In this document: one piece after another, positions 1,679 through 52,865 of the stretch
Layout: each line of letters begins with the position of its first letter
Numbering within the stretch: position 1 is the first letter of the stretch
Assembly: GCA_027003075.1 (NCBI GenBank)
Contig: JALWYV010000001.1
Coordinates: forward strand, 24,128-88,127
Origin: a candidate division WOR-3 bacterium
GTDB lineage: Bacteria; Hydrothermota; Hydrothermia; LBFQ01
Reading direction: 5' to 3'
Length of the DNA stretch: 64,000 bases
Notes under the pieces: generated by a model
The model's input: the letters and a program-made list of their open reading frames with translations, nothing else
Told to the model about the DNA's origin: nothing
Database searches by the model: none
Translations under genes and position numbers: made by a program

Positions 1679-2287
1679 ATGATCCTCCTTCTGGTCTCTC
1701 AATACGACTGGGAAGCGGAAGAGTACTACTACGAGGAGATCAGGCGCAAGGGTAAGTACGTCCTCTTCGGCGCCGGCTACGGCATGTTCACGTCCAGAGA
1801 TAAGCCTCAGGTAGCCCTCGGATATCTGGGGATAAGGACAACCCGACTTGAGGATCCCCGCGCCTACTTCACCTTCCTCGCCGGGGGAGGCTACTCCTTC
1901 ACCCACGATCTGATAGTGGGAAGCGGTGGGTTCCTCTACGAAAGGCGCACCCAGAGGTTCGGCGGACGGATAGCCTTCCACCTCGGCATAGGACTCGTGG
2001 CATCTTATTACTCCTGGCAGGAGGGATCCTCCCCCCTCGCGGACACCGGCGTGGACGTAACGAACTCCGTGGGTCTGGACTTCCCGATAAGGGGGGCGGT
2101 GAGCCTCCGCTTCGGCTCCTTTGAGTTCATACCCGAGGTGCAGGCCGTGCCTTTCGTGGATACGAAGTTCAACAAGGCCTTCTCCGTAAGGGGAGTGCTG
2201 TACGTACTGTACGGTCAGGAGTCGGAGTCGGAGTTCTTTGAGGCAAAACGGAAGGAAAAGGAGCGAAAGTACAAGAAATTGAAGTGA
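1679..2287 (+). CDS. hypothetical protein (202 aa), Tyr/Gly-rich, possibly beta-rich with a Lys-rich tail
   Basis: The ORF fits the gap between neighbouring genes and overlaps the next gene by 4 nt. No recognisable domain. Confidence 0.35.
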   Translation: MILLLVSQYDWEAEEYYYEEIRRKGKYVLFGAGYGMFTSRDKPQVALGYLGIRTTRLEDPRAYFTFLAGGGYSFTHDLIVGSGGFLYERRTQRFGGRIAFHLGIGLVASYYSWQEGSSPLADTGVDVTNSVGLDFPIRGAVSLRFGSFEFIPEVQAVPFVDTKFNKAFSVRGVLYVLYGQESESEFFEAKRKEKERKYKKLK

Positions 2288-3072
2288 ATCTTCCTAAAAA
2301 CTTCCTGACCCTCCTGCCACCACCGGCGGAGTGGTCCGATGAGAGGGTTGAGGAGTACATGGATGTAGCTGTAAAGTCCATCAGGAAACTGGGAAATGCC
2401 ACAGTTAACGTGCCTGAGGTCGTACCCTACGGCAGAAAGGAGGACAGACCCCTGCCCTTCCGTCCTAAGATGGACCTCCTCAGATTTGCCCGGATGTTGA
2501 AGGGAAGAGGCCTTGAGGTGTACACCGACCGCTACGCACCCCTGATGGAGAGGGAGGAGTTCCTGCGCTTTTTGAGGGAGGCCGTCGCCGTAGTTGACGG
2601 CGTGGTGGTAGTGGGGAGCGTGAGTTCAAGGATGGAGAACCCCGGATACACCGCCGTTGAGGGTATAAAACTGGCCAGAGAGTACTTTGAGAGCGTGGGT
2701 GCCATAACCGTATTTGAGAGGGATGGGGAGGTGGAGAGGGTATGCGAAAAGGCGAGAGCGGGAGCGACCTTCTTCCTGTCCCAGATAACCTTCTATCCAG
2801 AACGTGTGAGAGCCTTTCTATCCTCCCTGAGATCGGAGTGTGAGAGGAGGGGGATGGCCCTTCCCAGAGTTTACGTCAGCGTCGCCCCCGTCTATGGCGA
2901 GAAGGACAGGGAACTCCTTAGATGGATGGAAGTGGACGTCCCCCCTACCCCTCCGAACCTCATAACCCTCGTACGGGAGGTAAAAAAAGTACCCGGAGTT
3001 GCAGGTATAAACTACGAACATCTGAGGTACTCCAACCTACCCGTGCTGTACGACCTTGACCTTCCGGCGTAG
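2284..3072 (+). CDS. methylenetetrahydrofolate reductase-like (MetF-family-like) protein
   Basis: The C-terminal half is patterned like MetF ('ATFFLSQITFYP' ~ 'AITQFFFD'; 'GINYEHL' ~ 'DFHFYTLN'). The N-terminus has a 'LTLLPPP' segment like the MetF 'FEFFPPRT' segment. The match is weak and from memory only. Confidence 0.45.
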   Translation: MNLPKNFLTLLPPPAEWSDERVEEYMDVAVKSIRKLGNATVNVPEVVPYGRKEDRPLPFRPKMDLLRFARMLKGRGLEVYTDRYAPLMEREEFLRFLREAVAVVDGVVVVGSVSSRMENPGYTAVEGIKLAREYFESVGAITVFERDGEVERVCEKARAGATFFLSQITFYPERVRAFLSSLRSECERRGMALPRVYVSVAPVYGEKDRELLRWMEVDVPPTPPNLITLVREVKKVPGVAGINYEHLRYSNLPVLYDLDLPA

Positions 3073-3495
3073 GGTCTCCCTAAGGTTGGACTCCTGAATT
3101 ATGGACTCTATGGTTATGTCGGAGAGGATATCCTTTATCTTCGCCTGAACCCTGTTCCAGACGCTCCGGAGGACGCAGTCCGTAGCCGGCACGAAACACT
3201 CCTCCTCCCCTCCCGGTGTGAGACACTTTACCAGACCGTACTTCCCCTCAACGGCCTCTATCACGTCCAAAACGGTTATCTCGTAGGGCGGGAGGGCGAG
3301 CATGTACCCGCCCTTCTTACCCCTTATGCTCCGGACGAACCCCTTCCTCCTCAGCCTGACGAGGATCTGCTCAAGGAAGTTGGGGGGTATCCTCTCGGCC
3401 TTGGAGATCTGGGGTACGCTCATGGGCTCCTCGCTCAGGCCGAGTCTTACGAGGGCCTTCAGGGCGTACTCCACCTTTAGCGTAAACTTTAACAA
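3037..3495 (-). CDS. Rrf2-family transcriptional regulator (IscR/NsrR-like)
   Basis: Has the 'KVEYALKALVRL' N-terminal helix-turn-helix signature of Rrf2 proteins and is ~150 aa. Uses a TTG start. Confidence 0.8.
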   Translation of the reverse strand: MLKFTLKVEYALKALVRLGLSEEPMSVPQISKAERIPPNFLEQILVRLRRKGFVRSIRGKKGGYMLALPPYEITVLDVIEAVEGKYGLVKCLTPGGEEECFVPATDCVLRSVWNRVQAKIKDILSDITIESIIQESNLRETLRRKVKVVQHG

Positions 3496-3497
3496 AG

Positions 3498-3572
3498 AGG
3501 TGGCGCGGGGATTCGAACCCCGGAATAGCGGTTTTGCAAACCGCCGCCTTGGACCGCTTGGCTACGCCACCC
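3498..3572 (-). tRNA. tRNA-Cys (GCA)
   Basis: On the minus strand the sequence reads GGTGGCG...TTCGAATCC...CGCCACC. It folds into a cloverleaf with a 7-bp acceptor stem, a GGTTCGAATCC T-loop and an anticodon loop TT-GCA-AA. The CCA end is not encoded. Confidence 0.85.
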
Positions 3573-18982: not shown

Positions 18983-19689
18983 GTTTCAATCCCTTGGCTG
19001 CAAACTATACGTGGGCAATAGATCCGTTCTGGTGAAAAGACGGTTTCAATCCCTGTTTCAATCCCTTATAGGTAGGCTGAAAACGCACATACCCGTGGGC
19101 TAAATCGCATTAGTCTGGGGAGTTTCAATCCCTTATAGGTAGGCTGAAAACAGTAAAGATGATGCATGGAAAGTTGTGCAGAAAATGCGGTTTCAATCCC
19201 TTATAGGTAGGCTGAAAACGAGCCTGTTGGGGAGGATGAAGACGACCCCTCTTAACAGTTTCAATCCCTTATAGGTAGGCTGAAAACTACCGTATTAGGG
19301 GCAATTTCCCAGTACTCGCCCTTGTTTCAATCCCTTATAGGTAGGCTGAAAACGCTGAAAACTGGGAGAGGACGGCGGCGACCGTGGATAGTTTCAATCC
19401 CTTATAGGTAGGCTGAAAACGTGAGAGTAGGGCGGGGCCCGGTAGTCGCTTCGGGTAGTTTCAATCCCTTATAGGTAGGCTGAAAACCTATCACCATGCC
19501 GGTGGCCCACTGAAGGAGTCGTAGTTTCAATCCCTTATAGGTAGGCTGAAAACTCCGTTTTGTTCAGGTACGTACTTAAATTTGAACCAAGTTTCAATCC
19601 CTTATAGGTAGGCTGAAAACGAATAAAGGAGAATGGAAAAGTAGTGCACGAGTTTAAACGTTTCAATCCCTTATAGGTAGGCTGAAAAC
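18983..19689 (-). CRISPR. CRISPR array of 10 full 30-nt repeats, one truncated repeat, one degenerate terminal repeat and 9 spacers
   Basis: Perfect 30-nt repeats start at 19055, 19122, 19190, 19258, 19324, 19391, 19458, 19524, 19591 and 19660. Spacers are 36-39 nt and all different. A degenerate copy lies at 18983-19005. I infer minus-strand orientation because the leader-like region is on the right and the minus-strand repeat ends in ATTGAAAC. Confidence 0.9.
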
Positions 19690-42563: not shown

Positions 42564-42908
42564 TTATAAGGAAGTTCGCGGCTTTTTTCGTGGCAGGTCA
42601 GAAGTATCTATACCGTACTTGCTCAGGTAGGCCCTTACGAGAAGTTTGAAGAACTTCGTATGTTTCCCGTCCATCAGCTTAAGATGAACCAGCTCGTGTA
42701 CTATCACCTCGTGGCGGAATCGGGCGGGTTGTTTGAGCAGCTCGCTGTTTAAGGTGAGCCTCCCCCTCGTTGAGACGCTCGCCCACTTGCGTTTCATCGG
42801 CCTTACGTGTATCTCCCTCAGCCTGTCCTCAACCCCTATTCTCCTCGCCCATGTCCAGACCTCGGCGATGAGAACATCCCGCATTACGTCATCCCTCATA
42901 TCTCTCAT
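42564..42908 (-). CDS. YgjP-like (DUF45/M48-family) zinc metallopeptidase, short form
   Basis: 'HEVIVHELVHL' is the HExxH motif. It overlaps the hsdR 3' end by 20 nt, a known hsdR-associated position. Confidence 0.65.
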   Translation of the reverse strand: MRDMRDDVMRDVLIAEVWTWARRIGVEDRLREIHVRPMKRKWASVSTRGRLTLNSELLKQPARFRHEVIVHELVHLKLMDGKHTKFFKLLVRAYLSKYGIDTSDLPRKKPRTSL

Positions 42909-45804
42909 CCTCTATCCTCCTAAGTAATCTGAGTATGTCGTTCGTCCACGGCACGACGTCCTTTATTCCGGCCCCAAGGAGGATTTTGTAAATCCTCTTC
43001 CTAAGTCTCCCCTCCTGTGTGGAGCTCCTGCCCCAATAAGGGAACTCCTTCAGGGCTTCGTCTATACCGGTGGCCAGTTTTTCGGAGGTTTCTGGATCCA
43101 TTTCCTTCTGCACGCGCATCCACCACTTTACGGCGAAGGCCTTGCCGGAGAGATGGGTTTCCTTCATCTGTCTCCGGGCCTCCTTTATTTCCCTTACGAG
43201 CCTTTCCAGTTCCTTCAGGGCCTGCCTGCTGTTTATCTGTCTCTCCTCAAAGGCTTTCCTTATCCTCTCCGCCCTCTCTCCTATGGGAATGAGGTAGGGT
43301 TCTTCCCTCCCTTCCTGTGCCACCAGCCGGGCTATGGTGTTCAGGAGGTTGAACATCCTTACGGTTTCGGGTGTGTGTCTTGCCGCAAGGAGGGTCTCAA
43401 GCGTTTCGGGGGTTATCTCGTAGGTTTCGTTCAAAAAGTTAAGCTTTGACGTGTGGGTGTTCCTCTGTACTATCTCAGCCGTTTTCCTGAGGAAGGATTT
43501 ACTGACGTCAACCTTCGGATCGTAGGCGTTTCTGAGTACCCTGTACATCTCCGCCAGTTTCCTGTAGTCCTCTATGAAAGGGCGCAGGAAAGGGTCCGGG
43601 GATATTACCTCGTAGAGTTCCTGAAGTTCGCGGAAGAACCTGTAAAACTCCTCCCTCTTATCCCTGTCCCGAAACCTCTCCAACAGGGCATCGGCCATCC
43701 TGTCGGCGCTCCCCACGTTGAGAAAACTCAGGTATTCCGTTTTTCCGGCCCGTATCAGCTCCGCGAAGCGCTCCTTCAGGACGTCAATCCCCTCCACGAC
43801 CCCCTTTATGTCCTCGGAGTCAAAGGTCAGCGCCCTCTCAAGGTTGTCAAATATGCCGACGAAGTCTATTATCAGGCCGTTGGTCTTCTTGCGGCCGCTT
43901 TCGTCCTCGTAAGGGCGGTTCACTCTGGCGATGGCCTGAAGGAGGACGTGGTCCCGCATGGGTTTGTCAAGGTACATGGCGTAGAGGATAGGGGCGTCGT
44001 AGCCGGTCAGGAGTTTTTCCGTGACGATGAGGATCTTAGGGTTTTCGTCGGGTTTCCTGAAGGCCTTCCTTATGCGGGTCTCCTCCTCGTCGTTCAGGTG
44101 GTAGCGCTTCAGATGGGGAGGGTCGTTGTGGCCCCGGCTTATCACGACCTCGCTGTATTCAGGGGGCAGGTACCTGTCCAGAGCCTCCTTGTAGAGGACA
44201 CACGCCTCCCTATCCACGGCCACAAGGAAGGCCTTGTACCCCATAGGTTCAACGTTGTTTTTGAAGTGATCGGCGACGAAACGGGCGATCTTATCCACCC
44301 TCTCGCTGTTCTTCAGCATGTTTTTGAGCCTGACAGCCCTATCCAATACCCGGTTTATCTCCTCAATGTCGGCCACCCCCTCAAGGGCAGCGGCCTCCCA
44401 GAACTCCTTTTCCATGGTCACCCTGTCAACTACGAGGTCGTTCGGTGCCATCTGGTAGTAGAGGGGAACGGTCGTCCCGTCCTCTATGGACTCCTTTATG
44501 GAGTACTTGTCAAGGTAACCCCTCGGAGGGTCGTCTGCTCCGAAGACCTTGAAGGTACCCTTCCCCTTGCTCGTCTTGTCTATCGGCGTGCCGGTGAATC
44601 CTATAAACGTGGCGTTGGGGAGCGCCCCCATAAGGTAGTTTCCGAGGTCCCCGCCCGTTGATCTGTGGGCCTCGTCTATCAGGACGATTATGTTGGAGCG
44701 GGTGTTTAGATTGGCGTCCGCTTTATCAAACTTATGGATCATGGAAACTATCAGGCCGCGGGTGTCACTCTTGAGGAGTTCCCGCAGGTGTCTTTTGCTC
44801 TTCGCAACGTGAAGGTTGCCGAAGCCCACGGCCTCAAGGTTCTGGAAGAGCTGTTGCTGGAGTTCGTTCCTGTCCACTATCATGAGGACGGTGGGGTTCT
44901 CAAATCTCGGGTCCTCCAGTATCAACCTCGCAATTGTTATCATGGTGTAGGTCTTACCGGAACCCTGCGTGTGCCATACGAGGCCGCGCCGTTTTATGGG
45001 GTCTCTTGCCCTGCCTATAACCTTCCTCACAGCCCGCATCTGGTGGGGTCTCAGAACGACTTTGGAGAGTTCCCCGTCTCTGCGTACGAACAGGATATAA
45101 TCTCTCAGGACCTTCAGGACCCTCTGCGGAGATATAAAGGTTTTTACGAGGGTCTCAAAGTCCCCGGCCTGCTCATCTTTGTAATTGAACAGCGCCTTTC
45201 TGGATAGGTTCCACGTGGGTCCGTAGAAGAACCGGACCCGGTTCGTCAGGGCATATATCTGGCTCTGAACCATGAGTTCGGGGCCCTCTTCGTGGTACCT
45301 GCGTATCTGGTCGTGGGCCTCCGGTATCCCCTCCATCTTCGTGGGTGATTTGGCCTCAAGGATTATTACGGGTATGCCGTTGATGAGGAAGACGACGTCA
45401 GGCCGTATTACGGCCGCACCACTGACAAAACGGAACTCCTCCGTAACGTGGAACGTGTTGTTGCGTGGATTTTTGAAGTCAACGAGACGGACGTTCTTCT
45501 CCCTTTTCTCCACCTCAACGAAAACGGTTTTAAGGCCCTTCAGGTACTCCCACGCCTCGTAATTCCCCTCTATGTTGAGCTTCACCCTTACGAGCCTGTC
45601 TATTACCTCTTCGGCCTTTGTCCTGTTCGTTATGGTAGTGGGGTTGAGTCTCTGAAGCTGCTCTATCAGGATGCTCCGCAGTACGGGGCTGCTCTCCCCT
45701 CCCCTCAGTCTCAGGGCCTCGTCCGGAGGAAGGTACTCCCAACCCACCTCTTGAGCGTGCTGTATTATCGGGTTCTGAACGGTGTGGCGTTCGGAGAACA
45801 TCAC
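42889..45804 (-). CDS. hsdR: type I restriction enzyme R subunit
   Basis: 971 aa with an N-terminal nuclease domain and SF2 helicase motifs ('WHTQGSGKTYTM', 'IVDRNELQQQ', 'DEAHRS'). Host-like GC content. Confidence 0.9.
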   Translation of the reverse strand: MMFSERHTVQNPIIQHAQEVGWEYLPPDEALRLRGGESSPVLRSILIEQLQRLNPTTITNRTKAEEVIDRLVRVKLNIEGNYEAWEYLKGLKTVFVEVEKREKNVRLVDFKNPRNNTFHVTEEFRFVSGAAVIRPDVVFLINGIPVIILEAKSPTKMEGIPEAHDQIRRYHEEGPELMVQSQIYALTNRVRFFYGPTWNLSRKALFNYKDEQAGDFETLVKTFISPQRVLKVLRDYILFVRRDGELSKVVLRPHQMRAVRKVIGRARDPIKRRGLVWHTQGSGKTYTMITIARLILEDPRFENPTVLMIVDRNELQQQLFQNLEAVGFGNLHVAKSKRHLRELLKSDTRGLIVSMIHKFDKADANLNTRSNIIVLIDEAHRSTGGDLGNYLMGALPNATFIGFTGTPIDKTSKGKGTFKVFGADDPPRGYLDKYSIKESIEDGTTVPLYYQMAPNDLVVDRVTMEKEFWEAAALEGVADIEEINRVLDRAVRLKNMLKNSERVDKIARFVADHFKNNVEPMGYKAFLVAVDREACVLYKEALDRYLPPEYSEVVISRGHNDPPHLKRYHLNDEEETRIRKAFRKPDENPKILIVTEKLLTGYDAPILYAMYLDKPMRDHVLLQAIARVNRPYEDESGRKKTNGLIIDFVGIFDNLERALTFDSEDIKGVVEGIDVLKERFAELIRAGKTEYLSFLNVGSADRMADALLERFRDRDKREEFYRFFRELQELYEVISPDPFLRPFIEDYRKLAEMYRVLRNAYDPKVDVSKSFLRKTAEIVQRNTHTSKLNFLNETYEITPETLETLLAARHTPETVRMFNLLNTIARLVAQEGREEPYLIPIGERAERIRKAFEERQINSRQALKELERLVREIKEARRQMKETHLSGKAFAVKWWMRVQKEMDPETSEKLATGIDEALKEFPYWGRSSTQEGRLRKRIYKILLGAGIKDVVPWTNDILRLLRRIEDERYEG

Positions 45805-46313
45805 AGGAAGATATTATATACGATTTGAGCGACCATAAATATTGCCGTAACCAAATACATACAGGCAAAAATTTTGGGAATTAGTGCCTCATAAGAGGTA
45901 AACGGCTTATAAATTTTGGGATGTTTCCCTTGTTTTAATATTTCCCATTCCGCGGTATATGGCTTCACTGGTAGATAATTTTCTAAAGCATGTATAACCT
46001 TAAATTTGCCGCTATTCATTCGTTTATATGAATTTATAAGATCCCCCCATAGCATTGCTATTGCGAATCCTACTAATGAAGCGGGGATTATGAAAAGTGC
46101 ATTTGATGTTTTAAAGGAATACATTATCACCCCGAGAATGGCTGAGTTGATAGTTATGAATAAATTATTCGTCTTATGCCGTCTTTCGCTTATATTGTCC
46201 GTCATTTTTACATAAAGTTTATAAATTTCTAATAGATGATCTTCATATTTATTACCATATCTCTCTTTTTCCAAACCCCTTATAAAATTCGAAAGTTCCA
46301 ACTCCTTATGCAT
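45801..46313 (-). CDS. small three-helix membrane protein (170 aa), candidate effector partner of the TIR protein
   Basis: Three hydrophobic helices (LFITINSAILGVIMYSF, LFIIPASLVGFAIAMLWGDLI and the C-terminal IFACMYLVTAIFMVAQIVYNIFL). It overlaps the TIR gene by 8 nt and hsdR by 4 nt, and is AT-rich. Confidence 0.5.
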   Translation of the reverse strand: MHKELELSNFIRGLEKERYGNKYEDHLLEIYKLYVKMTDNISERRHKTNNLFITINSAILGVIMYSFKTSNALFIIPASLVGFAIAMLWGDLINSYKRMNSGKFKVIHALENYLPVKPYTAEWEILKQGKHPKIYKPFTSYEALIPKIFACMYLVTAIFMVAQIVYNIFL

Positions 46314-46725
46314 TTGCCCATTTTCGTATTGCTCTAACTATAGATTCTGTATTCCATCCAACAATCTCATTAGCGTTTTCCCTTACTTTTCTGGATATTT
46401 TAATCTGACCTCTTGGAACTATTGCAATAATTGGTTTAGGAATTGCAAATTCTTTCTTCGCTATTAATATTTCCTTCTGTATCCATTTACTGTATGTTGC
46501 ATATACTCCAGCCAAAACTAAAACCACATGGCATGATTTCATCTGGTTCTTTATGGCTTCATAAAGTTCTCTATCACTACCGGAGGTATGAATAGGATCA
46601 TCTGGGGGAACAGAATAATCCTTAAATTTAAAATATTTACGCTTTTGTAGGAGATTTATTAATCTCCTATAATGATCCTCATATGTCCATGAATGGCTGA
46701 TAAACAGGTTATACGTCTTTACCAT
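46306..46725 (-). CDS. TIR-like domain protein (DUF1863, Thoeris ThsB-like)
   Basis: 'YNLFISHSWTYED...' matches the ThsB 'VFFSFHYQD' start. '...SKWIQKEILIAKKEFAIPKPIIAI' matches ThsB 'RRWVRYEIMKSIEKGNKIIGI'. 139 aa and AT-rich. Confidence 0.65.
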   Translation of the reverse strand: MVKTYNLFISHSWTYEDHYRRLINLLQKRKYFKFKDYSVPPDDPIHTSGSDRELYEAIKNQMKSCHVVLVLAGVYATYSKWIQKEILIAKKEFAIPKPIIAIVPRGQIKISRKVRENANEIVGWNTESIVRAIRKWANA

Positions 46726-46748
46726 TTTTTGCCTCCTTTAGGTAGATA

Positions 46749-47528
46749 TTATAAGCCCGGATGAACGTCAAGTGGGCAGCTCTCAACCCTCCACCTGAAT
46801 ATTTCATGCTGGACCTCCACAGCCGAACGGTTATCCTTTATGACACCCGCCCACTCCCACGAGAATTCAGCTCTCTTATCCCCTTCAACGAACTTCAAAA
46901 ATCTTCTAAAGGCGATAAAATAATGCTGTACAAGTGATTTGAAAGTATCCTTCGCCTCCATCAAAACGTTCTCTTTTATGCTGATTTTATTTTCCATCCA
47001 GAACATAAAAACGAAGAGTAAAACCTCAACCTTAAGGGACAGATTTATAGAGTCTTTTAGACTCTCCGCTATCTCCGGTCTGTAGATCAAGATAATCGCC
47101 CAAACGGGATGTGAAAACATGGAACGCATAAAATCCGGGTACGTTATACTTTTGAAGTCAAAACTTTTGAATTCTTCAGGTGATTCGTTCAAGACCGTAC
47201 GGATTAGTTTGGATGAGGATTTAACGATCGGTACCAGATAGTTTTCAACATAGGGGAACATATCTATAAGCTGCGGATGGTCTTTGAACCCCTCACCAAT
47301 CCGTTCTATTCCCTCAACTATATCCACTCCCTCCCATTCTTCTGCAAGTTTAGAAAGGACAAGGAACCTTATCTGAAGCAAGGTCGTTAATATTTCCTTA
47401 TCCTCCAACATCTCTGACACATCTTCGTGGCTCTCAACCAGCTCCCTGAACCTCTCAATCAACTCCCTCCCCTTCTCGTCTTCCATCTCCTCAATCATCC
47501 CCGGCGCCAAAATCTCCAACATAGGCAC
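46749..47528 (-). CDS. hypothetical protein (259 aa) inside the defense island
   Basis: ORF with AT-rich codon usage like its neighbours. Contains an 'RELVESH' (R-x5-H) motif of uncertain meaning. Confidence 0.45.
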   Translation of the reverse strand: MPMLEILAPGMIEEMEDEKGRELIERFRELVESHEDVSEMLEDKEILTTLLQIRFLVLSKLAEEWEGVDIVEGIERIGEGFKDHPQLIDMFPYVENYLVPIVKSSSKLIRTVLNESPEEFKSFDFKSITYPDFMRSMFSHPVWAIILIYRPEIAESLKDSINLSLKVEVLLFVFMFWMENKISIKENVLMEAKDTFKSLVQHYFIAFRRFLKFVEGDKRAEFSWEWAGVIKDNRSAVEVQHEIFRWRVESCPLDVHPGL

Positions 47529-47530
47529 GT

Positions 47531-48877
47531 TTATTTTACAGCCGAACCGTCCCCCTCAAACTGCTTGACGAACTCCTTTGGCAGACGCCTTCGGGCCGTT
47601 AAGAGGTCGTGGAGGAGGGTTTTAAAGAGCGTATCTAACGCTTCCACCTTCTTCCTCTCAGCCTCTATTTTGTCATCCACGGCCTTCAGAATTTCGGCTA
47701 TGTGTTTCTGCTCGTGGAGAGGAGGGAGGGGGATGGGGAGAGAAATTAAAAGTGACTTTGGAAGTCTTTGCCGTCCCGTCGTTCCTTCCATCTTACTCGA
47801 TAGATTTTGGCGAACTTTTGGATACTTCAGATAATATGCTAGATAAAACAAATTCAAAGAGCTTTTTTCGTCTGTCCATATTGGAAAAACTTCTGTCGTA
47901 GCGTAACCCCATTCTCCGGGAATACTCTTAACTATTCCCTGTTTTCCGTTCTCAAAACTCGGTGTTATTCGTGCTACCAGTAAATCCCCTTCTTTTACCA
48001 AAACCCCACTTTTAACGTCCTCCCTGCGTCTCATCTCCCACCGCTCTATAAACATAAATTCATCAGGGATAAGACTCATAGGAATGAATGGAATACTATC
48101 CCCACTTAACTTTACCCCTTTGTGTCCGATCTTTACCACCTCCCCCAACCGCACCACCTCCCAATGTTCCGGGATCTTTCCGACTTCCGTTTCCTTCAAC
48201 TTCACCTTATCAACCTCGTCAAGAGGCACGGGGCCGTAGGTGAATAGGTGCCTCATCAAAGACTTCTTGAGTTCCTTGAGAGCCTTTATAACGTTTTCGG
48301 TCTTCTCCTTCGCCTCCTGCACAGCCCTTAAGACGTAGGCGATGGCCCTCTGCTCCGGTAGAGGGGGGAGGGGGAAAAGAACTTTCAGAAAATCTTGGGG
48401 CTTTAGATTTTTTCTCCTGTGGACGACGTTGGAAGCAAAACGCATGTACTGGGAAATCATAAAAGGTTGTTTAACTAACCAGTTAAGAAAATCTAGATCT
48501 ACATCCTTGCGAACTATATCCCACACGTGATAAGCCGGACTCACTGCTCCGATGGGATAATTAGAAACCGCAAGAACACCTTCATTGATGGGAAATCCAT
48601 ATACAAGTTACCCCTTTAACACCACTTTATAATTACTTATATCGCGTCCTGCCACCCTTTTTTTAAATTTTTTAAACTGGGGTATCAATCCGTCGTATCT
48701 AGTAATGGAGAGTATAATACCCTTAAAACTTTGCTCTAAATCCTTTACACGTAGTGAGCTTTTCCTAAACAAATCAGCCCCTTTGACCACCTCCCACTCC
48801 TCCGGCAAAGGCCCTAACTCTGTCATTCTGTGGCCGGGAGGGAAATTGTTAGATTTAATCATTTTTGTTCTGTTCAT
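47531..48877 (-). pseudogene. hsdS: type I restriction specificity subunit HsdS interrupted by one in-frame TAA
   Basis: The 89-aa ORF (48608-48877, 'LPEEWEVVKGADL') and the 337-aa ORF (47531-48544) share one reading frame. They are separated only by a TAA at 48608-48610 and 21 sense codons. Together they make about 448 aa with two target-recognition domains. Confidence 0.6.
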
Positions 48878-50519
48878 GTTGTGTTCCTGTTTTAACTAAA
48901 TGTTTTATCTTGTCAATCATATTTTTTATGTATGTCCATCCCTCGTGATCCCGGTCCGGATCCAATCTCCGTACCGCTTCTCTTGCTATAAATGGTTTAC
49001 CTGTAGATCCTTCATCTTTTGCTTTCTTTTCTAATTCTCTATAATTCGGGAAATATTGCCTCATAGCATTTTCAAAATTTTTCCCAAATATAGTAAACTT
49101 ATCCTCTACAATCCAGTCATTGGCTGATATCAAATCGCCAATTTCATTTTCGTCGTTTATTCCTACTGAACGCAAAACATCTTTACGTTTTATTCCTTGC
49201 TTGTCATCTGTTATATCGTTGTCAAAAATAATATATGTAGGTATACCGTAAGAAGTAAAAAATCTATACCATTTAGCAAGATTTCCCTTGCCGCCTACAC
49301 TTATTATAGCAATACCTTCTTTTTCCAATTGAAAGTACTGCTTTTCAAAAAGTTCTGGCAATGCAAATACTTCAGTAGGCCCTTCTACAAGTATTATAGC
49401 ACGTGCGAAAAAACCTGAAAGAATTTCAGGGGATGCATGAACACTGTAATACGGGATTACCGTGTCTTCATTAACCTTATCGGAAGGAGCCCCTAATTTT
49501 ATAAGACTGTTGGACAGATCTTTGCGGGTTAACTGTCGGGTCCTTGTAGCACCGTTCTCCTTATATACAAGGACTAATCCTTCCAAGTTTTCTATTGATA
49601 GAAATTCAGGGCTATGGGTTGTTATGAGTATTTGGAGTCCCTCCTGAGCTCTGCTGCGGAGCTTTTTGGCAAGCCATTTTTGTGCAAGCGGATGCAAATG
49701 GGCTTCAGGTTCTTCAATAATTAGCAGTATTCCACCGTGAAAGGCTTTTGCATAAGAGTATGCAAGTGTTAGAGCCAAAATTTGTTGTTCACCAGTCCCC
49801 ATCTCTTCCAGAGAAACAACAGTCTCCCCTTCTATGGCTTGTAGTTTTAATGCATGAAAGTAATTTGCTGGATTATAAGCTTCAAAATCCACTTCAAGAC
49901 GATGCTGCATTCCATCAATCATATCATTAAACTCTGTTTGTAAATCATCAACAAATTGTTTGAATGGGGATATCTTGAGAAATTCTTCTTTAATTTGTTC
50001 GAATAATCCATTAAGGTTATTTACTACCTCATTGTGTTCTTTTAAATGTTTATGGAACCTTCTCATAATTCTACTAAGCAATGTCCATTTAGAAGAATAG
50101 CTCAGGTGATAAGAGAGGTTTCTTTCTGCTTCAACCACAACTGCAATGCAGTCTTCTCTATCTTCATTTCTAATATATCTTGCTTCTCCGTGACTGATTC
50201 CTTTATAATACACCGGAATATCTTCTAATGGATTGTATCGCCATATGATAGCTTCAAACTTCCCTGCAAGAGGAGGATCAAATTTTGCGCTAATTTCAAT
50301 CGTATTACTCCTATCTCTACCGAAAAATTCAAAATCTTCAGGGTCGTAATTACCTGGCCAGACAGGCCCCAGAAGTAACCGTATCGCTTTGACTATATTA
50401 GATTTTCCGGCATTATTTTCTCCTATTAATACTACATGACCTGTTTCAGGAAAAACTATTTTCACAGGATCCTTAATAGAACGGTATCCCGAAATTCTTA
50501 TTTCCCTAATCCTACCCAT
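48855..50519 (-). CDS. OLD-family ATP-dependent endonuclease (ABC-type ATPase plus C-terminal TOPRIM), single-gene class 1-like
   Basis: Walker A 'GENNAGKSN', Walker B '[13 protein letters not shown]', H-loop '[10 protein letters not shown]'. The C-terminal TOPRIM has 'ILVEGPTE' and 'IFDNDITDD'. AT-rich. Overlaps hsdS by 23 nt. Confidence 0.8.
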
Positions 50520-50793
50520 TCTCCCCCTCCATCCTAACCCCCAGTACCCTCAACACCTCCCACAACCTCCTGTCCGCCTCCCTCCTCTCGTCCTCCACGA
50601 TCTGCAGGGCCACATCCCGGCTCCCGTACTCCATCGCCAGGGCCTTTATCTCGTCCTCAAAGACGTCCGAAAGGCGCTTGAGGAAAATGAGTGGCAGTAT
50701 GTAGTCCTTGAACTTCGGGGCGTCAATCGGCCCCCTTATCACCGAGGCGGCTTCCCACAACCAGTTTTCAAGCGTCTTTATGCTCAACGCCAT
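50512..50793 (-). pseudogene. hsdM: HsdM N-terminal domain remnant (93 aa); the methyltransferase domain is absent
   Basis: '[41 protein letters not shown]' is the HsdM_N signature. The ORF ends in a divergent tail whose TAG overlaps the OLD ATG (ATGGGTAG). accD follows immediately, so no catalytic domain can be present. Confidence 0.55.
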
Positions 50794-50829: not shown

Positions 50830-51678
50830 TCACCTTATGCCCGCAGTCATCATATCAAGGAGGCGGGCTATGGTACGCTTCATCTCCCTCCTGTCCACCA
50901 CCAGGTCCACCTGCCCATGCTCCAGCTGGAACTCGCTCCTCTGGAATCCGGGAGGGAGGTCCTGCCCTATGGTCTGCTTTATCACCCTCGGCCCGGCAAA
51001 ACCAATAAGGGCGTTCGGTTCTGCTATTATCACGTCCCCTAACGCCGCAAAGCTGGCCATAACACCGCCCATGGTCGGGTCCCCGAGGACGGTTATGTAC
51101 GGAACCCCTCTCTCCTCCAGTTGTATGACCCCCACGGTGGTCTTCACCATCTGCATTAACGAAAATATCCCCTCGTGCATCCTCGCCCCGCCCCCGGAGA
51201 AGAGGACGGCTATGAGAGGTACGCGTTTACGTCGGGACTCCCTTGCCGCTCTGTAGAACTTCTCCCCGAAGACCGACCCCATTGACCCCCCAAGGAAGGC
51301 GAAGTCCGTGAAGAACCCCACCACCTTCCTACCGAATATGTGTCCTATCCCGGCCACGCTGCTGTCTTTGAGGCCGTACAGCCTCTCGTACTTGCGCATC
51401 TTATCCTTGTATCCGGGGAAGTTCAGGGGGTCCGCGGAGACGAGGTTCGCCCCGATCTCCTTCTCTATGCCCTCGTCAAAGAGGAGGTTGGCGTACTCGT
51501 ACGCCCCTATACGGAAGTGATAGCCGCACTTCGGACACACCTTGGCGTTGGCCGTCAGGTCCGGGTTCGGGAGGATGCTCCCGCAGGAGGGACACTTTAC
51601 CCAGAAGTCGTCCGGTATGCTTATCCGGGACTTCTTTTTCGGGGGTGGTACCTTCTTCTTTTTCCTGCGGAAGAACAT
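50830..51678 (-). CDS. accD: acetyl-CoA carboxylase carboxyltransferase subunit beta
   Basis: Zinc ribbon 'CPSCGSILPNPDLTANAKVCPKCGYHFR' and a carboxyltransferase domain. The start at 51678 overlaps the upstream gene's stop (ATGA). The track ORF is over-extended. Confidence 0.9.
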   Translation of the reverse strand: MFFRRKKKKVPPPKKKSRISIPDDFWVKCPSCGSILPNPDLTANAKVCPKCGYHFRIGAYEYANLLFDEGIEKEIGANLVSADPLNFPGYKDKMRKYERLYGLKDSSVAGIGHIFGRKVVGFFTDFAFLGGSMGSVFGEKFYRAARESRRKRVPLIAVLFSGGGARMHEGIFSLMQMVKTTVGVIQLEERGVPYITVLGDPTMGGVMASFAALGDVIIAEPNALIGFAGPRVIKQTIGQDLPPGFQRSEFQLEHGQVDLVVDRREMKRTIARLLDMMTAGIR

Positions 51679-52865
51679 CAGGCCACCTCCACGCCCTCGT
51701 ACACGATCTTCTTCCAGAGCGTACCTACCTCCCTGACCCTGTCGGCCACGTACTCCTTTATGTCCTGAAGCTCCGTATCCGTCACCCCACCCCACACCCT
51801 CGTATGGACGAGCTGGGGTTCGTTGATGGGCCTCCCGATCTGGGAGACGAGGTAGATGTAAACGTTCTCAACGGCCGGGAACCTCTCCACCACCTCCCTC
51901 GCTATCATGTTGGCGGCTACGTTGTATATCTTCCCCACGTGGGAGACGGGGTTTTTGCCGGCCGCGGCCTCAAGGGTCATGGGTCTGTAGGGGGTTATGA
52001 GGCCGTTCACACGGTTCCCCCTTCCCACCTGACCGTCGTCCCCCGCCTCAGCGCTGGTGCCGGTTACGGTTATGTAAACCGACCCCCTCCCGTAGTCGTC
52101 GGCCACGTTGATCTCAACCGACAGGGGGTAATCCCCAAGTATCTCCTTGGCGCGTACGTACACGTCGTTCTGGACCCTCGTCTTCAGTTCCCTGTAGTGT
52201 TTGACGTCCTTCACGTACCTGTCAACGAAGGCGAGGGCCACGGTGATCCGGTAGGTCTTGAGGTCCCTCACCACCATCACCTTTATGTCCTCTCCCACGA
52301 AGGGGTTGTCAGATTTGTACTGGGGTGAATTAAGGAAACGTTCCACCTCGTAGGCCAGCTTTTCGGCCTTCGTCAAAGGGTAGAAGCCAACGCCGAAGGA
52401 CGTGTCGTTGGCAAGGGGAACCCCACCCTCCCTCTCAAAGAGGTCGGTGAGGTCCTCGCTTCCGGCCCGCGCCTTCAGGTATAGGTTGATGTGCCGGTCA
52501 ACGTCAAGGTGGGGGAGGTTCCTGCGGAGCCACTCCTTCGTCGTCTCGTAGTAGATCTCCTCTATCTCCTTACGGAACTCCTCCCCCCTGTACCGGTAGG
52601 TTGCTCTCCCCACGAGGGTGAACTCTATAGGTTCCTTTATCTCCCCTCCTCCGAATCTGGGTGAGGCCTCCCCGCCAACGAGGATGGCCTTGTCAAGGTT
52701 GTGATGCAGTATCTTCCCGAACCTGCCGATGTAAAAACGGGAAAGGGCCCTGCTGTACTCCTCCGCGAGGCTGTCGCATATGGTGTCAGGGTGTCCCGTA
52801 CCCTTACGCTCCACTATCTCAAAGTCTCCCATGAAGGGTGCCGTCTCCAGATCTATCCTGACCAT
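51678..52865 (-). CDS. mat: S-adenosylmethionine synthetase, archaeal-type (MAT)
   Basis: 395 aa with 'ERKGTGHPDTICDSLAEE' near the N-terminus, the archaeal AdoMet synthetase signature. It is not the bacterial MetK pattern. Confidence 0.8.
   Translation of the reverse strand: MVRIDLETAPFMGDFEIVERKGTGHPDTICDSLAEEYSRALSRFYIGRFGKILHHNLDKAILVGGEASPRFGGGEIKEPIEFTLVGRATYRYRGEEFRKEIEEIYYETTKEWLRRNLPHLDVDRHINLYLKARAGSEDLTDLFEREGGVPLANDTSFGVGFYPLTKAEKLAYEVERFLNSPQYKSDNPFVGEDIKVMVVRDLKTYRITVALAFVDRYVKDVKHYRELKTRVQNDVYVRAKEILGDYPLSVEINVADDYGRGSVYITVTGTSAEAGDDGQVGRGNRVNGLITPYRPMTLEAAAGKNPVSHVGKIYNVAANMIAREVVERFPAVENVYIYLVSQIGRPINEPQLVHTRVWGGVTDTELQDIKEYVADRVREVGTLWKKIVYEGVEVA

Follow-up and report, generated by a model that had tools for sequence, protein, structure and literature searches.

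How does a block of strongly AT-rich DNA come to lie in a GC-rich chromosome without any sign of an integrase? This question was raised by positions 45805-50519 of a 64-kb stretch of DNA (the window; contig JALWYV010000001.1, positions 24,128 to 88,127) from a candidate division WOR-3 bacterium of ~56% GC. The block lies within the hsd operon of a Type I restriction-modification (RM) system. It probably consists of accessory anti-phage cargo held in two slots of this operon (hsdM, slot 1, hsdS, slot 2, hsdR, ygjP), together with AT-rich, exchangeable target recognition domains (TRDs) of hsdS. Turnover of the cargo, by gain, loss and exchange, probably went mainly through recombination anchored in the hsd framework, and the RM system appears to have been inactivated since.

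An AT-rich block nested in an hsd operon

The block had a GC content of 0.397, compared with 0.558 across the remainder of the window. It was the lowest-GC 4.7-kb stretch of the 64 kb; the runner-up among non-overlapping stretches (0.509) contained a CRISPR array. A first-pass annotation had judged the block by eye to be strongly AT-rich and had suggested a sliding-window GC profile as a check. The computed profile bore this out, with a sharp drop from 0.55-0.60 outside to 0.30-0.47 within ~45.8-50.5 kb. Each GC step spanned only one 200-nt window, and both were at gene junctions, at the two start codons where the annotation had placed the edges. At the lower edge, the stop codon of a gene for an 8xMP-family membrane protein shares bases with the hsdR start codon (TGATG, 45801-45803). 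At the upper edge, the ATG of a gene for an OLD family protein, at 50519, is within the end of an hsdM remnant.

None of the hallmarks of an integrase-mobilised island (an integrase or recombinase, a tRNA or another att target, flanking direct repeats) was found. The sole tRNA in the window was tRNA-Cys at 3497-3571. Direct and inverted repeats around the block were limited to short matches at chance level. The neighbouring genes encoded no integrase or transposase domain, and no IS element was found. These scans agree with what had been seen by eye, from which site-specific integration had already been argued against.

The genes of the operon and its surroundings, in the 5'-to-3' order of the minus strand, are as follows.

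50830-51795, minus strand: accD, the gene preceding the hsdM remnant
50512-50793, minus strand: hsdM remnant, 93 aa; matches Pfam HsdM_N at positions 1-59 only; GC 0.578, GC at third codon positions (GC3) 0.83
50575-50613, minus strand: hsdM deletion junction, where the N- and C-terminal tblastn matches overlap
48855-50519, minus strand: OLD family ATPase/Toprim nuclease, 554 aa, slot 1; Pfam, PADLOC and PDB matches
47531-48877, minus strand: hsdS, a mosaic specificity gene; Methylase_S and PADLOC Specificity_I matches
48608-48610, minus strand: in-frame TAA in TRD1 of hsdS, seen in sequence and translation
46749-47528, minus strand: unk259, an orphan gene of 259 aa, slot 2 gene 1; the true start is likely the ATG at 47522
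46306-46725, minus strand: ThsB-like TIR protein, 139 aa, slot 2 gene 2; Pfam ThsB_TIR, 3.7e-16
45801-46313, minus strand: 8xMP-family membrane protein, 170 aa, slot 2 gene 3; Pfam PF24838, 1.5e-36
42889-45801, minus strand: hsdR, 970 aa, called start ATG at 45801; HSDR_N, SWI2_SNF2, ResIII and T1R_D3 domains
42564-42908, minus strand: YgjP-like metallopeptidase, 114 aa, last gene of the hsd operon family; Pfam YgjP-like, 5.1e-17

Non-hsd genes are thus nested at two places, OLD between the hsdM remnant and hsdS, and unk259, TIR and 8xMP between hsdS and hsdR. The OLD start and the end of the hsdM remnant have 8 nt in common, and the 8xMP start overlaps the TIR gene by 8 nt. Because all these genes are on one strand with overlapping or nearly adjacent stops and starts, the hsd genes and the cargo are probably co-expressed as one operon. 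A scan of the operon for promoters and terminators gave counts at or below those of shuffled sequence. The YgjP-like HExxH peptidase gene (114-118 aa) overlaps the end of hsdR across this hsd family; tblastn gave 76 matches, and in the related loci checked it came directly after hsdR.

The composition of the block was not uniform. We compared its genes with the 47 other long open reading frames (ORFs) of the window, which had a GC content of 0.562±0.024 and a GC3 of 0.713±0.064. The lowest values were in 8xMP (GC 0.333, GC3 0.333; z = -9.6 for GC), TIR (0.338, 0.264) and OLD (0.369, 0.277), followed by unk259 (0.436, 0.535) and hsdS (0.464, 0.518). hsdR was host-like (GC 0.544, GC3 0.72). Inside the block, the two conserved regions of hsdS, CR1 and CR2, were also host-like, and the TRDs were AT-rich.

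48786-48877, minus strand: hsdS leader
48376-48785, minus strand: hsdS TRD1, GC 0.383
48141-48375, minus strand: hsdS CR1, GC 0.553
47740-48140, minus strand: hsdS TRD2, GC 0.409
47531-47739, minus strand: hsdS CR2, GC 0.526

Related loci differ in cargo on a shared framework

An HsdR scan with one genome per species gave 80 related loci. In the first of those compared here, L003, hsdR was 97.8% identical to that of the window at the nucleotide level (synonymous divergence, dS, 0.079), and the downstream genes were the same. The homology restarted exactly at the hsdR ATG (45801) and ran downstream from there. Upstream of hsdR, only CR2 with the first ~60 nt of the unk gene (93%) and the 3' end of unk (82%) could be aligned. 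Slot 2 of L003 carried a diverged unk (40% amino acid identity) and then a PIN gene, in place of TIR and 8xMP in the window. The annotation had reasoned that an identical region of matching composition in close relatives would speak against acquisition; L003 carries different cargo, though the CR2 and unk ends align.

Homology broke at exactly the same point, the hsdR ATG, when the window was aligned with L004 and L089, and the sequence immediately upstream of this ATG varied with the type of cargo. A GC step at the hsdR ATG was also present in L003, L004 and L015, which have other cargo. For example, in L004, whose hsdR is 82% identical to that of the window at the nucleotide level, a fall in GC to 0.28-0.46 ended abruptly there. 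L004 has PIN_12 and MNT/HepT genes upstream of an intact hsdS and a DarT-macro fusion and DUF3800 downstream, and hsdM was not detectable in it. L089 originates from a different sample within the same project and carries hsdS, DarT-macro, unk, TIR, 8xMP and the beginning of hsdR, the 5' end of which is 91% identical to that of L004. L015, a Thermotogota metagenome-assembled genome with an intact hsdM, has in slot 1 a cassette of a 244-aa gene, a Piwi gene and a 128-aa gene (GC 0.27-0.35), and in slot 2 DarT-macro and an inverted unk homologue.

Cargo and hsdR differed in their divergence. Between the window and L089, TIR and 8xMP were 95% and 92% identical at the nucleotide level (dS 0.20 and 0.27), and dS was 0.60 for unk; for hsdR, dS between the two lineages was 0.74. 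The last 30 nt of 8xMP were identical in the two loci and divergence began with the first hsdR codons; the first 119 nt of hsdR were 81.5% identical. Cargo and hsdR were both under purifying selection, with a ratio of nonsynonymous to synonymous divergence (dN/dS) of 0.08-0.17. The block is therefore not the single ~4.7-kb island of the first description: it comprises two cargo slots and two AT-rich TRDs, with dS values that differ among its parts and the adjacent hsdR (0.20-0.27, 0.60 and 0.74).

The hsdS gene showed the same pattern at a finer scale. Its leader, CR1 and CR2 were 78-92% identical at the nucleotide level among the window, L004 and L089, and the TRDs of the window did not align with those of the other two. 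In the comparison of L089 with L004, TRD1 and CR1 were 92% identical, TRD2 was unalignable, CR2 with DarT-macro was 94.6% identical, and the cargo then differed until the hsdR ATG. Swaps of TRDs and of cargo in these two loci were thus delimited by the conserved regions of hsdS. The block of CR2 and DarT-macro was 80% identical at the nucleotide level even between L004 (WOR-3) and L015 (Thermotogota), compared with ~70-72% for hsdR.

Compared with the window, L004, L089 and L015 have the DarT-macro cassette in place of the last ~11 codons of hsdS. Downstream of the cassette, the former tail (QFEGDGSAV*) and the start of unk are still present. The cassette encodes a DarT domain fused to a DarG-like macro domain (406-410 aa), with a start that shares bases with the stop of hsdS (L004 7745-8965, L089 1165-2385, L015 5564-6796).

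The first 84 nt of hsdR contain 8 of the 63 mismatches between the window and L003, a cluster with P = 3e-4 for a pre-specified window. As a direct footprint of a crossover, this cluster is suggestive only.

The surroundings of the operon were compared through accD. In the closest accD-syntenic relative, L092 (88% identity in AccD), the gene after accD is one for an HD-domain phosphohydrolase (2266-3357), which is absent from the window. As this gene is unrelated, synteny breaks exactly where the hsd operon begins. More distant relatives keep the MAT-accD synteny and have no hsd genes. The annotation had proposed an alignment to the closest genomes for finding the ancestral empty state. These relatives did not define such a state for the operon as a whole; the compact hsdM-hsdS-hsdR arrangement of family relatives is the sole reference.

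Slots and cargo across the hsd family

A slot was scored as compact at a gap of 300 bp or shorter. Among the 80 loci, slot 1 (hsdM-hsdS) could be scored in 42 and was compact in 27; slot 2 (hsdS-hsdR) could be scored in 60 and was compact in 31. In filled slots, the cargo was AT-richer than hsdR in 40 of 44 cases (median difference in GC -0.058; sign test, P = 1.7e-8), with the WOR-3 loci at the extreme. The 89 cargo ORFs belonged mostly to defence or toxin families, such as AlbA_2/PDC-S09, MNT/HepT, AAA_21, Mrr, DarT-macro, GmrSD, HamA, Piwi/pAgo and OLD; transposases were few. The strand of the hsd genes was shared by 77 of 93 ORFs.

The RM system is inactivated by lesions in hsdM and hsdS

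The hsdM remnant consists of HsdM residues 1-72 joined in frame to the last ~21 residues, so that the whole N6-methyltransferase domain is gone. When the intact HsdM of L015 (530 aa) was compared with the window by tblastn, its residues 1-73 matched 50793-50575 and its residues 496-529 matched 50613-50515. Around residue 70, HsdM proteins of this family have the sequence IVEDERRE; their C-terminus carries EAEEERAEADRKLREVLGVLG, and there the motif EAEEERA.ADR.L.EVL..LG was kept in 8 of them. In the remnant, the N-terminal VEDERRE is fused to the C-terminal ADRRLWEVL, with microhomology between EDERRE and EEERAE; the same junction was seen in alignments with L015, L088 and other HsdMs. The likeness of the two motifs suggests that the deletion joined two similar purine-rich stretches and so removed the entire methyltransferase domain. 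It spared the native hsdM stop codon, which overlaps the start of the next gene. The 93-aa ORF recurs in two other assemblies, L001 (ENA) and L002 (Logan). Neither an N6_Mtase match nor a second hsdM was found in the window by Pfam or tblastn, though a copy elsewhere in the genome is possible.

In hsdS, the TAA at 48608-48610 (read as KVVLKG*LVYGFPINEG, where the asterisk is the stop) splits the gene into ORFs of 89 and 337 aa. Both TRDs and both conserved regions are present, yet the reading frame is interrupted. The split was likewise called in the independent contig L001. Of the three subunits of a functional Type I system, HsdM is reduced to a 93-aa remnant without its methyltransferase and HsdS is interrupted, and only HsdR is complete, as a 970-aa ORF with nuclease, SF2 motor and helical domains. 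On the evidence of the coding sequence, the RM system is dead, with the hsdM methyltransferase deleted in frame and a nonsense codon in hsdS; the cargo and hsdR are intact. The annotation had taken hsdM, hsdS and hsdR as the scaffold of exchange and overlooked both lesions; this framework is not intact.

hsdR itself was under purifying selection (dN/dS 0.08 against L003 and 0.13 against L004). In L004, a search at lenient thresholds found no hsdM remnant. Either the losses of hsdM are recent, or a compatible hsdM is present elsewhere in the genome, or hsdR is kept for another reason.

A decaying locus of the same layout is present in a cultured organism, Marinithermus hydrothermalis (L088; CP002630, 1090920-1108377). 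It carries hsdM, AlbA_2, OLD cut to 485 aa, a DDE transposase, hsdR cut to 806 aa, and ygjP.

How the cargo may have entered the operon

We propose that the cargo would have been drawn from mobile defence modules of low GC content that form a pool common to thermophile lineages, and that the 3' end of hsdM, the hsdS leader, CR1, CR2 and the 5' end of hsdR may have served as anchors for recombination. Exchange anchored in the framework would put composition steps at gene boundaries and would need no integrase or att sites. Any conversion tract would end where homology ends and heterologous cargo begins, and the observed patterns were as predicted. Homologous recombination through the hsd framework was also the proposal of the annotation. 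The differing cargo on a shared framework, with breaks at its edges, speaks for that part of it, but illegitimate or microhomology recombination would have acted at the locus too, because DarT-macro seems to have been inserted into the hsdS tail and the hsdM deletion is microhomology-mediated. The inactivation of the RM system, by the microhomology deletion in hsdM and the nonsense codon in hsdS, may be later than the cargo exchange.

Several observations weigh against exchange through the framework. The comparison sequences were all metagenome-assembled contigs. The crossover footprint in hsdR is weak when the best window anywhere is considered (scan-statistic P = 0.07). The DarT-macro cassette resembles an insertion into the hsdS tail and not an exchange from flank to flank. 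An AccD search of metagenome contigs gave no clean empty locus in the closest accD-syntenic relative. No donor is known; GC-rich thermophiles supplied the best OLD homologue, at 60% identity. Furthermore, both WOR-3 lineages are without a functional hsdM, yet hsdR is under purifying selection, which mere decay of the framework would not explain.

Some of these observations would fit a passive genomic sink, an idea cited by Payne et al. (2024, bioRxiv 10.1101/2024.01.29.577857), in which DNA is inserted by illegitimate or microhomology recombination wherever it is tolerated, junctions at gene boundaries reflect selection against disruption, and homologous recombination between hsd genes has no special role. 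The hsdM lesion is a microhomology deletion, DarT-macro replaces the last ~11 hsdS codons in three loci and leaves the old tail and the 5' end of unk downstream, and the sequence just upstream of the hsdR ATG differs with the cargo type. Such a sink does not readily explain the identical TGATG junction of 8xMP and hsdR in two lineages whose hsdR genes are 18% different, the joint travel of CR2 and DarT-macro (80% identical across phyla, against ~70% for hsdR), or TRD swaps delimited by CR1 and CR2. We regard it as unlikely. Integration of the 4.7-kb island by site-specific recombination in one step, followed by loss of the integrase and att sites, would account for the abrupt composition steps at both ends. 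It is very improbable, as there are no integrase, tRNA or repeats, host-like conserved regions of hsdS lie within the block, its modules have different divergence histories, and close relatives differ in part of the block only.

The sharpness of the steps and the metagenomic source also brought up an assembly chimera, in which DNA of an AT-rich organism was joined to a GC-rich contig. The junction of accD, the hsdM remnant and OLD was, however, the same in the ENA and Logan assemblies, the 8xMP-hsdR junction recurred in L089, which represents a different sample and lineage, both junctions are spanned by overlapping reading frames, and L003, L004 and L015 have an analogous step at the hsdR ATG with other cargo. 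We therefore consider a chimera extremely improbable. Finally, the AT content might have risen in place, without any transfer, by relaxed selection on dispensable genes or by a mutational bias towards AT in them. Some general bias exists, since 40 of 44 slots, from many phyla, held cargo with a lower GC content than hsdR. It can hardly explain the block: the gap in GC3 (0.26-0.33 against 0.71) is too wide for genes with a dN/dS of 0.09-0.17, these modules are AT-rich in other, unrelated hosts and settings too, and near-identical strains carry non-homologous cargo. Recombination anchored in the hsd framework, with some illegitimate events, thus remains the probable explanation.

A further idea goes beyond this explanation and is, in our estimate, rather doubtful. 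The hsd operon may outlive its RM function as a 'cassette rack', in which hsdR and the conserved segments of hsdS and hsdM would be retained to anchor recombination and to serve as a scaffold for expression instead of for restriction. AT-rich defence modules would be traded through them among thermophile lineages, and these would include the ThsB-TIR and 8xMP pair as a so far undescribed Thoeris-like type. The purifying selection on hsdR in two WOR-3 lineages that lack hsdM points in this direction, as does the in-frame hsdM remnant, which preserves the coupling to OLD.

Cargo genes

The OLD protein of slot 1 matched Pfam AAA_15, AAA_21 and OLD-like_TOPRIM, and PADLOC Old (1.3e-47). Its similarity to the OLD of Thermus scotoductus (PDB 6P74) extended over residues 5-437 (E = 5.8e-31). 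The expected motifs were present: Walker A GENNAGKS (33-40), IEEPE (268-272), Toprim E379 and DND (433-435). Its neighbours are the hsdM remnant and hsdS, without the UvrD/PcrA-like helicase of Class 2, the retron of Class 3 or the AriB of Class 4. The protein is thus a predicted stand-alone OLD nuclease of Class 1 type, with a putative role in defence. It resembles the Class 1 OLDs of Thermus scotoductus (6P74, PMC7049728) and Vibrio cholerae (PMC12392090) in its match to 6P74, and differs in that its clade recurs directly after an RM methylase gene. The closest homologues, ~60% identical, were from Thermoflexus, Thermus and Marinithermus. In the three homologue contexts compared, two OLD genes came after hsdM and AlbA_2 (Thermoflexus, Marinithermus) and one after an MmeI-like RM gene. 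This recurrence beside RM genes points to an RM-linked clade of OLD.

A three-gene cassette with a Piwi-domain short prokaryotic Argonaute (pAgo) of 433-435 aa, together with proteins of ~142-244 aa and ~241 aa, was found in hsd slot 1 of L015 (1781-4221). The same cassette occurs at 9676-12135 of L085, directly after an OLD homologue beside an MmeI-like RM gene.

The TIR protein of slot 2 matched Pfam ThsB_TIR (3.7e-16), PADLOC ThsB (1.4e-11) and PDB 1EIW (MTH538; 8e-4), and it has the catalytic-glutamate motif S-x-W-x3-E (SKWIQKE, residues 79-85). The 8xMP protein has three hydrophobic helices (51-67, 72-93 and 148-169), and its AF2 model was all-helical (pLDDT 86.9). Pfam PF24838 was its only family match, with none in PADLOC or NCBIfam. 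Against PDB, Foldseek gave no match with E below 0.9 and phmmer gave none. A literature search on '8xMP' and 'octameric membrane protein' returned irrelevant results only. In the window, L089, L090 and L091, the 8xMP gene came directly after a ThsB_TIR gene, in four different contexts. The annotation had suggested looking for the same cassette in unrelated lineages; of the block, the TIR-8xMP pair was seen again in these three loci.

By analogy, TIR and 8xMP may form a Thoeris-like module with a membrane effector, in which TIR would sense infection and make an NAD-derived signal. Upon this signal, an oligomeric 8xMP might kill or arrest the cell. Thoeris types V (ThsB with ThsF/DUF2270) and VII (ThsB with ThsH/SLATT), which have small membrane effectors, have been described in a survey (bioRxiv 10.64898/2025.12.03.692087). 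The pair found here is similar in consisting of two genes, for a ThsB-type TIR and for a small three-helix protein of a family named for an oligomeric ring. It differs in its effector, which by sequence is 8xMP (PF24838) and not DUF2270, SLATT or Macro. 8xMP belongs to none of the validated Thoeris effector families (SIR2-SLOG, Macro-TM, caspase-like, DUF2270, DUF6650, SLATT and others), and neither PF24838 nor 8xMP is named in the supplements of the survey.

The first gene of slot 2, unk259, matched no family in Pfam, NCBIfam or PADLOC, and its own family is tiny, with 6 matches in a set of 1.84 billion representative proteins. Relatives share its 5' end, which has a host-like composition. 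A homologue followed by an overlapping PIN gene was found in L003 (363-1154), L139 (10001-10771) and L140 (1735-2505). In L139 and L140, where the vicinity is free of hsd genes, it comes after an ECF sigma/anti-sigma pair. This unk-PIN module is AT-rich (GC 0.31-0.33) even in a genome of 41% GC without an hsd locus nearby. To judge from these arrangements, unk259 may be a partner, as a sensor or an antitoxin, of exchangeable effectors.

A CRISPR array elsewhere in the window

The second GC dip of the window is accounted for by a CRISPR array at 19055-19689 on the plus strand. It has 10 perfect repeats of 30 nt (GTTTCAATCCCTTATAGGTAGGCTGAAAAC) and spacers of 36-39 nt, and degenerate repeat-like copies start just upstream, from ~18984. 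No cas gene is beside it; its neighbours are LptF/G on the upstream side and an unannotated ORF of 243 aa on the downstream side. A comparison of its spacers with the AT-rich block and with all fetched loci gave no credible match.

Relation to known embedded defence systems

Exchange of TRDs between Type I systems through recombination in hsdS has long been a subject of classical work. The differing TRDs with breakpoints at the edges of the conserved regions are similar to this shuffling, of which a preprint on Xylella fastidiosa gives an example (10.1101/2022.09.01.506293). Unlike in such shuffling, the exchanged tracts here also carry whole non-RM genes beyond hsdS.

Defence genes nested in operons of Type I RM, BREX, DISARM and Hma systems have been described by Payne et al. 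(2024), in a preprint that leaves the mechanism open; of those embedded in Type I RM systems, 96.7% are reported there in the same orientation (bioRxiv 10.1101/2024.01.29.577857). Named cases are PrrC in EcoprrI, TgvAB in VPI-2 of Vibrio cholerae (PMC11411939), and the rlo genes of Campylobacter jejuni, as cited there. In the present locus, non-hsd genes that share the orientation of the operon are interposed among the hsd genes and encode no transposase or integrase domains, and its slots are empty in other members of the family. It belongs to this known arrangement, defence genes in a Type I RM operon, and is not a new kind of genomic island. The OLD/ABC ATPases, TIR, GmrSD, HepT/MNT and pAgo of the window and its relatives match the described repertoire.

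The locus differs from the described systems in three respects. The RM system around the cargo is inactivated, by the hsdM deletion and the hsdS stop, so that rules of the PADLOC type would not recognise it as a complete Type I system. The contrast in composition is unusually strong. Breakpoints of strain-level cargo polymorphism were seen at the edges of the framework, which bears on the mechanism that the cited work leaves open.

These results refine current concepts and do not change them. What had looked like an island without an integrase becomes a concrete natural example of defence genes packed into an RM operon and traded through it. The window, L003, L004, L089 and L015 together give the breakpoints at single-codon resolution. 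For experiments, the locus offers three candidates: the RM-linked OLD clade, the TIR and 8xMP pair, and the orphan gene that may be a partner of exchangeable effectors.

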